This document shows positions 1-5,512 of a DNA stretch of 5,512 bases, in pieces. The notes below the pieces were generated by a model. That model searched no databases and was not told the origin of the DNA. It saw only the letters and a program-made list of their open reading frames with translations. Source of the stretch: a virus (Duplodnaviria > Heunggongvirae > Uroviricota > Caudoviricetes); IMG/VR virus record IMGVR_UViG_2706794670_000011, one strand, 5' to 3'. How positions within the stretch are numbered: position 1 is the stretch's first letter; each line of letters starts with the position of its first letter. The translations under genes and the position numbers were made by a program.

Positions 1-6
1 CTTTAG

Positions 7-384
7 AGTAACGTTGGGTTTTTCTGCTCATTATTAGCTCCTTCTGATGCCATTCTATTTCAGGAAGGAGTGTCCGTTAAACTCAGGCTACCTCAATTTG
101 CGCTGGGAAGTGGTGCGCAAGTTGCGTCTAGTGGCGATATTTATGGTTCAGTGTGGGAAAACAACTGGTTAAGCACATGGCTGCATAATCATGTCGTTCG
201 GGATATTCGTCTTGGCAGCATTGAATATAAAAACGTATGGCGCGACTACGGCTTTGGCGATGCGTCAGGTTATGTTTTAACAGCCGCAATTAACAGCAAT
301 GCGGATGATATTGTCGACACTGTTGCCAGAAGGCCAATTCAGAAATTGATTGGGGGAATATGGTACAACGTGGGGAGTGTTTAA
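7..384 (+). CDS. Tail fibre protein, C-terminal segment (stf-like); 5' part lies upstream of the window or is truncated
   Basis: Open frame from 7 to TAA at 382-384, directly followed by a tfa gene (TAAGATG junction). Its last ~60 aa align with the C-terminal end encoded on the minus strand at 1478-1660 (VRDIRLGS...[17 protein letters not shown] vs VRDVRLGT...[17 protein letters not shown]). An in-frame TAG sits at 4-6. Confidence 0.6.
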
Positions 385-385
385 G

Positions 386-913
386 ATGATGCACCTGAAA
401 AATATTAAGGCCGGGAATCCGAAAACACCGGAACAATACCAGCTAACTAAAAAAGCGGGCGTGGTATGGCTCTTTTGCGAAGATGGCAAAAACTGGTATG
501 AGGAACAAAAGAATTTTCAGCCAGACACCATAAAAATTGCTTACGATGAGAACAACATCATCGTTGCTGTCAGTAAAGACGTTTCAACTATTAATCCTGA
601 AGGGCTAAGCATAGTTGAAGTTCCTGATATTACGGCAAATCGTCACGCAGACAATAACGGAAAATGGATGTTTCTGGATGGTAAAGTAGTAAAGAGGGAA
701 TATACAGAACAGGAACTGCAACAACAGGCCGAATCACAAAAGGCCGCATTGCTTTCCGAAGCTGAATCAGTCATCCAGCCGCTGGAACGAGCTGTCAGGC
801 TGAATATGGCAACAGACGAGGAACGCACACGACTGGAAGCATGGGAACGCTACAGTGTTCTGGTCAGCCGTGTGGATACGGCAAATCCTGAATGGCCACA
901 AAAGCCTGAATAA
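386..913 (+). CDS. Tail fibre assembly protein (Tfa family chaperone)
   Basis: ATG at 386 ([14 protein letters not shown]...) one base after the stf stop, with GGGGAG 8 nt upstream. N-terminus and length match the Tfa family and are homologous to the convergent copy at 942-1475 ([14 protein letters not shown]...). C-terminus ([22 protein letters not shown]) is homologous to the tfa remnants at 2698-2781 and 3597-3830. The ORF track begins at 350, but 386 is the more likely start. Confidence 0.85.
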
Positions 914-918
914 AAATT

Positions 919-938
919 AAGGCCCGATAGCGGGCCTT
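919..938. terminator. Hairpin between convergent tfa genes, likely bidirectional intrinsic terminator
   Basis: AAGGCCCG-ATAG-CGGGCCTT: perfect 8-bp GC-rich stem with 4-nt loop in the 28-bp gap between the two tfa stop codons. An A/T run (TAAAAATT) flanks it on one side. Confidence 0.5.
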
Positions 939-941
939 CTC

Positions 942-1475
942 TCATTCTGGTTGTTCGGGAAACGTTACTGGCAGGCTGGAGGTGTCTGTGGATTCAACCT
1001 TCTGCGCATAGAGCATCCACTCGGTTAATTTTTGTTTATTCTCATCGGAAATGATGCCCAGCTGTAGCTGAGAGTCCCACAGCTGGGTTTTATCCCTGAC
1101 GAGCTGCAGCAGGCTCTGCTTTTCATTTTCCGCTTGTTGCCTTTGCTCTTCCTCGGTATAAGTTCGCTTTATCACCGCACCATCTTTGAACATCCAGTTG
1201 CCCGAAATATCAGCCCGGCGATTTGCTGTAATATCAGGCAACTCAACGACACTTAAACCTTCTGGATTAATTGCTGATACATCCTTGTCTATAGCAATAA
1301 TTATTCCCTCAACTGTGTAAGCCAGTTTTATTGTATCCTCCTGAAAGTTTTTTAATTCCTCATGCCAATTTTTTCCATCTTCGGACCATAACCAGATAAC
1401 ATCAAAATTCTTTGTTAGCTGGTATTGTTCAACGGTTTTTGGATTACCTGCGACAATGTTTTTTAAATGCTGCAT
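942..1475 (-). CDS. Tail fibre assembly protein (Tfa family), alternative copy
   Basis: 177-aa ORF starting [37 protein letters not shown], homologous along its length to the plus-strand Tfa at 386-913. Its ATG sits 2 nt after the stop of the upstream 49-aa stf' C-terminal ORF (TAATCATG). Confidence 0.85.
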
Positions 1476-1477
1476 GA

Positions 1478-1624
1478 TTATACCTGCGATACGTTATACC
1501 ATGTTCCGTTAATTAACTTTTGTATTGGTCTGAATACTGCCGGATCATCACCATCGACTTCACCGATAATACCAAGCCCCGTGATTACATGGCCTGATTT
1601 TTCATACATCACGCCTTTCTTCAT
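1478..1624 (-). CDS. 49-aa ORF encoding the conserved C-terminal end of the alternative tail fibre, detached from stf' by an in-frame amber codon
   Basis: Minus-strand [51 protein letters not shown]. It is in the same frame as the stf' ORF, separated only by TAG (1628-1630) plus one codon. It is homologous to the last ~45 aa of the plus-strand stf. Confidence 0.5.
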
Positions 1625-1627
1625 GGT

Positions 1628-2392
1628 CTAAACAACTCGTGTGCCAAGTCTGACATCTCTCACATAGCGGGAATCAAAGTTACCGTAATCCGAGGGATTA
1701 ACACGTCCCGTAATATTTATGGTTTTATTACTTTGAATGCTTCCGGAGACAAAGCGCATAACATGGACGTTATTAGCATAAACATCCAGATTACCATCGC
1801 CTTTTTGTTTAAAGCCCGTGTCATTATCACCCAATACAATCGAATTACCGCCAAGAGCACTGGATGTTCCGATACCCAGTGCACCATTCAGTTGACCACC
1901 AGANNNNNNNNNNNNNNNNNNNNNNNNNNNNNNNNNNNNNNNNNNNNNNNNNNNNNNNNNNNNNNNNNNNNNNNNNNNNNNNNNNNNNNNNNNNNNNNNN
2001 NNNNNNNNNNNNNNNNNNNNNNNNNNNNNNNNNNNNNNNNNNNNNNNNNNNNNNNNNNNNNNNNNNNNNNNNNNNNNNNNNNNNNNNNNNNNNNNNNNNN
2101 NNNNNNNNNNNNNNNNNNNNNNNNNNNNNNNNNNNNNNNNNNNNNNGGTGCTTCCTGTTTTCCCTAAGGCAAACGCACCAACATGACTTGCTTTTAATGT
2201 GATATCGGAGGAACCATCAAAAGCCACATTGCTTATTTTCCTGGCAGTTTTTAATTTTGCAGCTGTAGAAGCATTGCCGGATAGTTCACCAGAAAGGCCA
2301 CCGCTGAATGTTTGTCGATTAGTCCAGGTATTCGCTGTACTGAGTAACGGTATTTTCTCCCCGCTTGTGCCGAGTTCTCGTAAACCGAGGTT
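1628..2392 (-). CDS. Alternative tail fibre variable C-terminal segment (stf'); ends at in-frame TAG; middle part masked by Ns
   Basis: Minus frame is open from the crossover-like site (~2392) to TAG at 1628-1630. Translation (...ANTWTNRQTFSGGLSGELSGNASTAAKLKTARKISNVAFDGSSDITLKASHVGAFALGKTGST[81 masked]SGGQLNGALGIGTSSALGGNSIVLGDNDTGFKQKGDGNLDVYANNVHVMRFVSGS...) is typical of phage side tail fibre distal domains. The GTG at 2227 that the ORF track uses as start is probably internal. Confidence 0.65.
   Translation of the reverse strand, partial: NLGLRELGTSGEKIPLLSTANTWTNRQTFSGGLSGELSGNASTAAKLKTARKISNVAFDGSSDITLKASHVGAFALGKTGSTXXXXXXXXXXXXXXXXXXXXXXXXXXXXXXXXXXXXXXXXXXXXXXXXXXXXXXXXXXXXXXXXXXXXXXXXXXXXXXXXXSGGQLNGALGIGTSSALGGNSIVLGDNDTGFKQKGDGNLDVYANNVHVMRFVSGSIQSNKTINITGRVNPSDYGNFDSRYVRDVRLGTRVV
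1904..2146. other. Masked or unknown sequence (run of 243 N) inside stf'
   Basis: Continuous N run seen directly; content cannot be evaluated. Confidence 1.
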
Positions 2393-2400
2393 TTAGATAA
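2375..2400. promoter_or_regulatory. Candidate 26-bp crossover site for a Hin/Gin/Pin-family DNA invertase (hix/gix/pix-like)
   Basis: TTCTCGTAAACC-GA-GGTTTTAGATAA: two 12-bp imperfect inverted half-sites around a 2-bp core, located where the stf' frame opens and ~55 bp upstream of the invertase gene, the canonical position. The match to known crossover sites is from memory. Confidence 0.6.
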
Positions 2401-2454: not shown

Positions 2455-2697
2455 GTGCTGATTGGCTATGTAAGGGTATCAACAAATGACCAGAATACAG
2501 ACCTGCAACGAAACGCTCTTGTTTGTGCAGGATATGAACAAATATTTGAAGATAAATTAAGCGGAACAAGGACAGGCCGACCTGGATTAAAACGTGCTTT
2601 AAAGCGCCTTCAAAAAGGTGACGCACTGGTTGTCTGAAAACTGGACTGACTGGGGCACTGTATGCGGCATCTTGTCGTGCTGGTGGTGGAAGCCTAG
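2455..2697 (+). pseudogene. pin: Serine DNA invertase (Pin/Hin/Gin family), disrupted: N-terminal ~80 codons with three in-frame stops, fused to a tfa 3' fragment
   Basis: GTG start at 2455 with GGAG 7 nt upstream. Translation MLIGYVRVSTNDQNTDLQRNALVCAGYEQIFEDKLSGTRTGRPGLKRALKRLQKGDALVV*KLD*LGHCMRHLVVLVVEA* carries the serine-recombinase N-terminal catalytic motif (YVRVST) and the family WKLDRLGR motif with W and R replaced by TGA (2635-2637, 2647-2649). The C-terminal two-thirds, including the HTH domain, is absent. Confidence 0.8.
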
Positions 2698-2835: not shown

Positions 2836-3504
2836 CTATTTTTTCCCTGAAGCGGAAAACATTACTACAGTACCTTGAACCCTGGTTTTAACATTCTCGA
2901 AATGCTCTGAGAGTATATGTGTTAAGCCTTCTTCGGAATCTTTTGTGTTTGAAAAGATGCCTTTCTGATTGTAAATGCGCATCAGTTTTTGACCGAAGCT
3001 ATTGTGCACAACTCCATCGCCAAGAATTGTGGCTCCGTATAGAGTTCCATCGTCAGTTAAGGCCTGCGCCGCATTGCGTATTACACAGCTTTTTGTAGAT
3101 ATATTTCCAGGCAGGCAGTGAAGAAGGTAAAACATGGAAATGGAATCAAATTGACCATGTAACGCCGCGGGATAAGGTTCAAAAACATCATGGCTAATTT
3201 TATGTTTAATTTTTGATTCCCCAGCCCTTGTAGATGCCGCGTTCAGGCTAGCTTCGTTCAAATCCATTAAAGATATCAGACTACTCTCAGGTACGTGAGT
3301 AAGGTAAAACCCAGTTCCAACACCAATATCCAGATGGTTGTTACCTAAATGTTCCAGAAAGTGTGGAAGAAGGTGTTCCTTTGTAGGACATCCCCATGCA
3401 AGCCGATTTGATACTCCCAAAACCCACCAGTCATAAAGCTTTAGGGTAAGTGGTGTGTAAATTTTAGCCCCATCATCTGTGTTTGTTTTCATTGATTTCA
3501 CCAT
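2836..3504 (-). CDS. Class I SAM-dependent methyltransferase (Rossmann fold), substrate unknown; probable prophage cargo (moron) gene
   Basis: 222-aa ORF (218 aa from the second ATG at 3492, which has GGTGA 5 nt upstream). Motif I LDIGVGTGFY (GxGxG SAM-binding loop), an acidic residue at the end of the next strand (LISLMDLNE), a later FDSISMFYLLHCLP segment and ALTDDGTLY. No DPPY/NPPY or PC-ENV motifs, so it is not an obvious DNA methyltransferase. Confidence 0.75.
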   Translation of the reverse strand: MVKSMKTNTDDGAKIYTPLTLKLYDWWVLGVSNRLAWGCPTKEHLLPHFLEHLGNNHLDIGVGTGFYLTHVPESSLISLMDLNEASLNAASTRAGESKIKHKISHDVFEPYPAALHGQFDSISMFYLLHCLPGNISTKSCVIRNAAQALTDDGTLYGATILGDGVVHNSFGQKLMRIYNQKGIFSNTKDSEEGLTHILSEHFENVKTRVQGTVVMFSASGKK

Positions 3505-3596: not shown

Positions 3597-3830
3597 TATG
3601 CTTCGATACAGCAGGAGCCGAATGGCTGGAAGACCGTCACCACACAGTTCTACATCCAGGAATTTAGTGAGTATATTGCGCCACTGCAGGATGCTGTAGA
3701 TCTGGAAATCGCAACGGAGGAAGAAAGATCGTTGCTGGAGGCATGGAATAAATATCGGGTATTGTTGAATCGTGTTGATACATCAACTGCACCTGATATT
3801 GAGTGGCCTGCAAATCCTGTCAGGGAGTAA
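3597..3830 (+). pseudogene. Tail fibre assembly protein C-terminal remnant (~77 codons, no start codon)
   Basis: Frame open from 3597 (stop at 3594-3596) to TAA at 3828-3830. Translation ...[57 protein letters not shown] is homologous to the C-terminal third of Tfa at 386-913. There is no ATG and no N-terminal Tfa domain. Confidence 0.7.
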
Positions 3831-3880
3831 TCATTGGGATTATGCCGCAGACACGTCGTATGCAGGAACGTGCTGCGGTT
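3747..3880 (+). repeat. Direct repeat copy 2 (tfa 3' end plus downstream hairpin)
   Basis: Partner of 2698-2830. Hairpin at 3845-3878 (CCGCAGACACGT...ACGTGCTGCGG) has a 1-nt bulge relative to copy 1. Confidence 0.85.
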
Positions 3881-3944
3881 AGTTTGTGAGCTTTCGATAG
3901 TGGTTGTTATTTTTGCCCTTATTTGTTCCGGAGGCCATGGTTCA

Positions 3945-4115
3945 ATGGTCCGTCTGCCCCCTGTGGTGATGTCAGCAAAATCAGCCACTGCGCGAACCAC
4001 AATAGCCCGGGAAGATGCTGAAGATCACCAGGTAAAGCTGTCAGCGCAGAAACTGGAAGAACTGCTCGCATCAATGGTTAAGGATGAGGTTGATCGCAAT
4101 GATGGGATTTATTGA
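3945..4115 (+). CDS. Hypothetical small protein (56 aa), doubtful
   Basis: ATG at 3945 with GGAGG 10 nt upstream; MVRLPPVVMSAKSATARTTIAREDAEDHQVKLSAQKLEELLASMVKDEVDRNDGIY*. No family recognised. The frame continues open for 29 codons after the TGA at 4113-4115. Confidence 0.2.
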   Translation: MVRLPPVVMSAKSATARTTIAREDAEDHQVKLSAQKLEELLASMVKDEVDRNDGIY

Positions 4116-4209
4116 CGTCAGCGAGAGCAGAAGGAAGAACTGAATAACCTGAATGATTTACGCTCAATCAGAGCGATGGCGATTAGCGGCAATCACGCTC
4201 GATAAAATT

Positions 4210-4240: not shown

Positions 4241-4833
4241 ATTAAAACCGCATCAACCTTTCCACCAATTGTTCTTTACGGGCAACGATCCACCCATGTT
4301 GCTCCAGATAAAATTTAAACCGTTCCAGAGTGCATACCATCGCATCGGCGGGGACTTTTTCTGTGAACTCGACCTGANNNNNNNNNNNNNNNNNNNNNNN
4401 NNNNNNNNNNNNNNNNNNNNNNNNNNNNNNNNNNNNNNNNNNNNNNNNNNNNNNNNNNNNNNNNNNNNNNNNNNNNNNNNNNNNNNNNNNNNNNNNNNNN
4501 NNNNNNNNNNNNNNNNNNNNNNNNNNNNNNNNNNNNNNNNNNNNNNNNNNNNNNNNNNNNNNNNNNNNNNNNNNNNNNNNNNNNNNNNNNNNNNNNNNNN
4601 NNNNNNNNNNNNNNNNNNNNNNNNNNNNNNNNNNNNNNNNNNNNNNNNNNNNNNNNNNNCCGAAAAGTTGGCTGATGTAAATTCGGGAGAGCAGTCGAGT
4701 GTGTCAATCTTAGCTAAAACGTGTTTATGTTGTTTATCGAAGTAGTCGGCAACAGCTTGAGAGGTGGTAACCAGGCGACCATCTTTGAAAAAGACTTTTG
4801 GTGACTCGTTAGAAAAAGTTATAGCTGTATTCA
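4241..4833 (-). CDS. Phage regulatory protein, Rha family (N-terminal Rha domain visible; centre masked; C-terminal part in a different frame)
   Basis: ATG at 4833 (minus) with GGAG 9 nt upstream. N-terminus MNTAITFSNESPKVFFKDGRLVTTSQAVADYFDKQHKHVLAKIDTL matches the Rha-domain pattern (...TTS..VA..F.K.H..VL..I..L). After the N-run the only protein-like minus frame is ...QVEFTEKVPADAMVCTLERFKFYLEQHGWIVARKEQLVERLMRF*, ending at 4241-4243. Confidence 0.6.
4378..4659. other. Masked or unknown sequence (run of 282 N) inside the rha locus
   Basis: Continuous N run seen directly. Confidence 1.
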
Positions 4834-5409
4834 TATGTGATGACTCCAATTAATTGGATGATCACCACCTCTGACGCCAATCAGGGAGGTGGTGAGACGT
4901 ACAGGGTTGGCGTAACCGGTCATCACAAAACCCGGCGCGGATTTCTCCGCCCCTGCACGCCCCACCATAATGCGAATGTGGCAATGCTTAACGCAAAAAA
5001 AACCGCAAACGCGGCTATGCGTTGTGATGTTATCCGAGACGCCAATCCCGACAACCGATTTTGCGGTTGTGTGAGGAATATAGCCCCGGAGAACAAAAAC
5101 TGTCAACGGGCAAAAAAATTTCCGTTATCAGGAATGTATAAAATTAAAGCGATCGAGCAAAAAATCCTTTCTGCAAAACTAAAAAAGATTTCAATAAAAT
5201 CAGGCAGTTAAAAACACGGAAAACGGTATAAAAAAGCGCCTCAAAATCCTGTTTTTTCTTTCAGATACAATGTCTTATTGCATTTTTTAAAACATGTCAG
5301 TGTGGTACATGGATATCGATACCATCGCCAATTATAAACTGGGCGGTGCACAGCAACATGATAGCGTACGCCTCGATCCGTGGGTGTTTATGTTCTCAGC
5401 AGGATATCG

Positions 5410-5512
5410 GGTAATGACTCCAACTTATTGATAGTGTTTTATGTTCAGATAATGCCCGATGACTTTGTCATGCAGCTCCACCGATTTTGAGAACGACAGC
5501 GACTTCCGTCCC
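5410..5512 (-). mobile_element. IS1 insertion sequence, right end (partial; continues beyond the window)
   Basis: GGTAATGACTCCAACTTATTGATAGTGTTTTATGTTCAGATAATGCCCGATGACTTTGTCATGCAGCTCC... matches, from memory, the reverse complement of the IS1 right terminus, including the ~23-bp terminal inverted repeat at 5410-5432. Confidence 0.9.
5425..5512 (-). CDS. insB: IS1 transposase InsB, C-terminal end (partial)
   Basis: Minus-strand translation ...GRKSLSFSKSVELHDKVIGHYLNIKHYQ* with stop at 5425-5427, the characteristic InsB C-terminus. Confidence 0.85.
   Translation of the reverse strand, partial: GRKSLSFSKSVELHDKVIGHYLNIKHYQ

Follow-up and report, generated by a model that had tools for sequence, protein, structure and literature searches.

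We found that the amber codon interrupting the alternative tail-fibre cassette stf' in a decayed Shigella sonnei prophage is very probably an ordinary nonsense mutation that has made the cassette a pseudogene, with no unusual decoding involved. The window, that is, the whole stretch of 5,512 nucleotides that was analysed (IMG/VR record IMGVR_UViG_2706794670_000011), comes from S. sonnei and is a decayed remnant of a lambdoid prophage located beside ompW and trp. The mutation and the codon from which it arose, the distribution of the allele in S. sonnei, and the lesions that surround it were all observed directly. Judged from its sequence, stf' appears to be the promoterless alternative cassette of an invertible segment of the Mu G/e14 P type, and the lesion affects a familiar type of system, in a species whose genes are well known to decay.

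The amber codon lies at 1628-1630 on the minus strand, where it is the reverse complement of plus-strand cta (minus-strand translation of 1478-2413). It separates the stf' reading frame from a downstream ORF of 48 codons and is in frame with both; the TAG is followed by ACC (1625-1627) and then by the ATG that opens the small ORF, with the frame unchanged. The small ORF (1478-1624, minus strand, stop codon included) encodes 48 amino acid residues, the 49 given in the preliminary description having included the stop codon. The stf' cassette upstream of the amber codon, which we take from the crossover site described below to codon 258 before the stop, occupies 1631-2379 on the minus strand, and part of it is covered by an N mask at 1904-2146. 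An unmasked copy of the locus was available in another IMG/VR record, IMGVR_UViG_2869953405_000008 (hereafter L008), which, read in the opposite direction, matches the window with 100% identity. In this copy, stf' matches the Pfam families gp37_C and gp37_trimer. The N runs of the window (1904-2146 and 4378-4659) are 243 and 282 nt long, and their equivalents in L008 are 255 and 247 nt; because the lengths differ, the window is not collinear with its source across the masks, and coordinates and frames that cross them are unreliable.

The preliminary description had stated that homology between the two tail-fibre ends of the window crosses the TAG, and had therefore regarded the small ORF as the severed end of stf'. 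Both statements held. In a BLASTP comparison, the end of the plus-strand fibre (window 97-384) and the end of stf' were 40% identical over 62 residues (E = 2e-10) in an alignment that spans the stop and far exceeds what chance would give. The C-terminal 250 residues of stf' also matched two solved fibre proteins of phage Mu, S' (8JU3, E = 2e-57) and S (5YVQ, E = 8e-16), both of which aligned over the amber site to their own C-termini. The alignment with Mu S runs from FDSRYVRDVRLGT through INGTWYNV and covers the mutated position, so that the C-terminus of Mu S aligns with the 48-residue ORF, and the motif RPIQK-ING-WYNV is conserved between tips that are otherwise divergent. Intact E. coli fibres end in exactly the sequence of the 48-residue ORF. 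Because intact homologues run on through the site with CAG, the ORF is the detached last 48 residues of the stf' tip, a leftover reading frame and no separate gene. Apart from this, the similarity of stf' to the alternative cassette found in E. coli relatives breaks off at about 1644, where VRDVRLG has its G; the homology between the two cassettes, and that with E. coli TUM10008, ends at the same place. The last ~55 codons thus behave together with tfa as an exchangeable tip-plus-chaperone module; since the homology ends five codons before the stop, the amber codon lies just inside this module.

The ancestral codon was sought in two collections. With window 1400-1900 as the query against 5,426 complete E. 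coli genomes, we found near-identical copies (98.6-98.8% identity), and in the E. coli loci OZ040035 (L002), NCTC86 (L003), and SF-088 (L004, a P2-like prophage) the amber position is occupied by CAG (Gln) and the fibre ORF is continuous past it. A degenerate 32-mer spanning the site retrieved 18 loci from the viral contigs of IMG/VR, the source included, twelve with CAG and six with TAG; the same 32-mer had no match in the genome contigs collection. In all the CAG loci a single frame stays open across the site, extending over as many as 908 codons before it and 49 after it, and no intact homologue among the E. coli and IMG/VR loci compared ends at the amber position with a separate small gene after it. 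The original codon, for which the preliminary description had proposed alignment with intact tail fibres, is accordingly CAG.

The TAG was found only in loci nearly identical to the window, every other homologue having CAG, and a 61-mer of the TAG version centred on the site was present in 0 of the 5,426 complete E. coli genomes. The closest CAG loci (L016 and L017) agree with window 96-1903 at all but 2 of its 1808 bases, the exceptions being 790 and 1630, and at 1630 the plus strand has A in the window and G in both of these loci. Given the CAG homologues and this small difference, the amber codon is the product of a single recent C to T transition on the coding strand (G to A at plus-strand 1630) that converted Gln to a stop. 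A sense codon in close orthologues with an otherwise collinear sequence is the pattern of a nonsense-mutation pseudogene. That the sequence beyond the stop has not decayed any further counts against a pseudogene, but the mutation is too recent for this to be informative. Our search of the literature on this S. sonnei prophage lesion found nothing relevant.

The allele is widespread. Exact look-ups showed that each of the two truncated ORFs, of 48 and 203 residues, occurs in 1000 or more contigs bearing the name S. sonnei, with the strain Ss046 entry Q3Z104 among the matches, and the 48-residue ORF was indexed in 2201 blocks that include several complete S. sonnei chromosomes. The intact CAG version (253 residues) was present on 27 contigs named S. 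sonnei. As the CAG allele survives within the species, the TAG is a near-fixed within-species SNP.

In the window, the two 3' fibre cassettes face each other, and each has its own assembly gene. The plus-strand pair consists of stf and tfa (386-913, 175 residues, intact; Pfam PF02413, E = 7.9e-37) and the minus-strand pair of stf' and tfa' (942-1475, 177 residues, intact; PF02413, E = 4.8e-34); both small genes between the fibres thus belong to the Caudo_TAP family. The distal part of the fibre is where the Tfa chaperone binds (PMC9608196). Directly upstream of stf' is a Pin/Gin-type crossover site of 21 nt, TTATCTAAAACCTCGGTTTAC (2380-2400, minus strand), which was the one match in a search of the window in which 0 were expected by chance. 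The window therefore holds a single site instead of a pair of inverted sites of ~26 bp; the second site was lost with the event that brought in IS600, and S. sonnei 53G and L020 each have the two. Next to the site is a remnant of the invertase gene pin (2455-2637, plus strand), in which 60 codons, covering only the N-terminal resolvase part (positions 2-69 of the 145 of Pfam profile PF00239), end at a premature TGA. No intact serine invertase is thus adjacent to the segment; pin is also truncated in E. coli relatives, where it is annotated as an incomplete recombinase. The assignment of stf' to the side tail fibres of the Lambda Stf/Mu S type draws on the prophage tail-fibre N-terminal domain PF08400 in the full-length E. 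coli homologue of 934 residues, on gp37_C in the truncated ORF, and on the matches to Mu S and S'. In the orientation of the window stf' is silent, having an in-frame TAA at the crossover site (AII*NLGLRELG...) and no constant 5' part. In Mu, one fibre set is expressed at a time, as determined by the orientation of the segment (PMC11821841).

The other fibre is damaged more severely. The left end of an IS600 element occupies window 1-95 on the minus strand, with the ATG of orfA at 31-29 and its ORF continuing beyond the window; in L008, both the orfA and the rve transposase ORFs of IS600 are seen (Pfam labels). Fibre homology begins at 96, and what remains of stf is the ~96 C-terminal residues (96-384, plus strand). 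Since the plus-strand fibre is a full 918 residues in S. sonnei 53G (HE616528.1), where it follows Lom and J, the IS600 insertion has removed ~820 residues. The preliminary description had pointed to a TAG at 4-6 in the frame of this fibre and had suggested that both fibres may carry amber codons. The triplet is present but lies inside IS600 and is no codon of stf, and the hint of a systematic recoding of amber codons disappears with it. Past IS600, the DNA is unrelated to the fibre and encodes DUF1327, a holin, and a SASA-domain protein; a comparison of L008 with the constant part of the fibre (4023-5883 of the E. coli locus L002) gave no match. The DNA past IS600 also varies among S. sonnei strains (L023 versus L027 and L032), which suggests that IS600-mediated rearrangements underlie these differences.

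At the right end of the window, a C-terminal fragment of ompW (5291-5512) is cut by the end of an IS1 element from about 5409, and an InsB ORF is seen at the start of L008; in E. coli relatives the ompW junction is the edge of the prophage, beside yciE and trp. An intact gene for a class I SAM-dependent methyltransferase of 222 residues (2836-3504, minus strand) lies between two direct repeats of ~145 bp with ~89% identity (2684-2830 and 3733-3880). Each repeat is a 3' fragment of a tail-fibre assembly gene; the first lies ~50 nt downstream of the stop of the pin remnant. The methyltransferase gene looks like cargo captured in the fibre region. Another decayed gene, a DUF4376 gene fragment with an internal stop according to the annotation of E. 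coli relatives, is found at 3900-4180, and genes for regulators of the Rha and Ash families (about 4253-5106, minus strand) appear intact.

Both orientations of the segment were found in related S. sonnei loci (the pairs L026/L030 and L028/L029) and not in the window itself. Between strain 53G (L026) and CP044151.1 (L030), the flanks are 100% identical and a segment of 2.95 kb is inverted, corresponding to 7209-10158 of L026 and to about 96-2404 of the window; the junctions swap exactly at the crossover-site core, ACCTCGGTTTAC. In the flipped state of CP044151.1, the constant part reads AAVIEYLGLRELGTSGEK, stops at the TAG after 875 residues, and is followed by the 48-residue ORF. In the case of UGZB01000001.1, the overlapping untrimmed ends of the contig (offset 4,933,332 bp) carry opposite orientations (L028 and L029), and this points to inversion within a single culture even though the local pin is dead. 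Inversion thus seems to continue although pin is a stump of 60 codons, and an invertase acting in trans is therefore implied. In two further loci (L014 and L020) the TAG is present and the segment is flipped; the mutation therefore appears to be older than at least some inversions, and it is certainly older than the IS600 event seen in the window. We also considered inversion by homologous recombination between long inverted repeats, an idea that originated from the ~775 bp common to the two cassettes of the E. coli locus L002, and rejected it for S. sonnei: the 53G locus has no long inverted repeat, and its breakpoints lie in the 12-bp core of the crossover site.

Several other explanations of the stop were weighed against the pseudogene. 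Apart from the prior probability of such mistakes, nothing speaks for an error of sequencing or assembly; the same allele occurs in six independent IMG/VR loci, and its presence on so many contigs and index blocks and on complete chromosomes excludes the read-level error that the preliminary description had named as a possible objection, leaving this explanation a negligible probability. The idea that the 48-residue ORF is a small gene in its own right, usually preceded by a shorter fibre gene, is refuted by the intact homologues. Gene callers do give it an entry of its own in S. sonnei records, one example being 'putative tail fiber protein (GpH)', but every CAG homologue is one continuous ORF, none ends at the site, and the 48 residues on their own have no Pfam match. 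The ATG situated 3 nt past the stop in the same frame raises the thought of termination-reinitiation at TAG-ACC-ATG, by which two polypeptides of 875 and 48 residues would assemble into a working tip, and some T-even-type phages do have a separate tip adhesin; S16 gp38 (6F45) gave a weak match. That ATG is, however, an ordinary internal Met of intact homologues (QTMKKG) and has no Shine-Dalgarno-like sequence ahead of it, the alignment with Mu S places the break within a single uninterrupted C-terminal domain, and no evidence of selection was seen; we therefore hold reinitiation to be very unlikely.

Readthrough of the amber codon, either by a suppressor tRNA of the host or phage or as a programmed event, would give the full fibre. 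Here, the ancestral CAG means that a tRNA-Gln suppressor of the supE/glnV type would restore the original residue, and the downstream 48 codons are still intact. Against this, the stop is absent from all the E. coli homologues and from 12 of the 18 viral-contig loci and is thus not conserved, as it would be in programmed readthrough or recoding; one SNP separates the TAG and CAG alleles of the same species; and the cassette in this genome lacks a start, the constant part, and a working adjacent invertase. A scan of the 10.7-kb source locus found no tRNA genes. Readthrough is accordingly given very little chance, and we infer that the stf' amber codon is not suppressed. The preliminary description had left the choice between a pseudogene and amber suppression; its former branch is favoured by the decayed context, and the latter received no support. 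It is also improbable that the stop has acquired a function because the segment still flips by an invertase in trans, making the amber-bearing fibre phase-variable (complete versus tip-less), or because termination-reinitiation yields a two-piece fibre; if true, either would give the stop a role beyond plain decay.

The pseudogene explanation may be outlined as follows. In a segment of this type, two alternative 3' fibre cassettes with their own chaperone genes point towards one another, short inverted crossover sites bound them, and an invertase gene lies beside them. One C to T transition changed a Gln codon from CAG to TAG, 50 codons short of the natural end of stf'. The cassette is translatable only once the segment flips onto the constant 5' part, and translation then stops at 875 residues. 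The lost end comprises a variable stretch and the RPIQK-ING-WYNV motif, by homology to Mu S a part of the folded receptor-binding tip, and a fibre truncated in this way would presumably not fold, trimerise, or bind its receptor. The truncated stf' product is therefore expected to be non-functional. IS600 has taken the constant part together with most of the other cassette. Because the constant part of the fibre, one crossover site, and pin are already broken, the lesion has no further effect in this genome. The intact tfa' counts against a pseudogene.

For annotation, the 203- and 48-residue ORFs listed as 'tail protein' in more than 1000 S. sonnei assemblies belong together as the two pieces of a single cassette broken by a nonsense mutation, and a pseudogene label is what they should carry. 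As a clean SNP within the species, the CAG/TAG site could serve as a lineage marker. Beyond correct annotation, the importance of the finding is small.

Invertible tail-fibre segments are known from the G segment of Mu (S/U and S'/U', with Gin), the C segment of P1 (with Cin), and the P segment of the E. coli K-12 prophage e14 (stfP-tfaP/tfaE-stfE, with pinE). The S. sonnei element resembles all three in its variable fibre cassettes, which run in opposite directions and are each accompanied by a Caudo_TAP chaperone gene; in its inverted crossover sites of ~26 bp, which share the core given above and lie inside the fibre gene; and in the serine-recombinase gene alongside and the occurrence of both orientations among strains. 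The homology of its fibre C-terminus to both S and S' is a further likeness to Mu. Unlike the three segments, the system in the window is broken, with pin reduced to a remnant of 60 codons, the remaining cassette carrying an amber codon, and IS600 in place of one crossover site, the constant part, and most of one cassette; and unlike those of the myoviruses Mu and P1, the element is located in a lambdoid (J-Lom-Stf) tail module. Shigella genomes are known for the formation of pseudogenes and for decay driven by insertion sequences, and a near-fixed nonsense mutation beside IS600 and IS1 insertions and truncated genes is a typical example. In being a CAG to TAG change in a structural phage gene, the mutation is like those of laboratory sus/am phage mutants. 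Whereas such mutants need suppressor hosts, the present one is a natural allele of a defective prophage, whose 10.7-kb locus contains no evidence of a suppressor.
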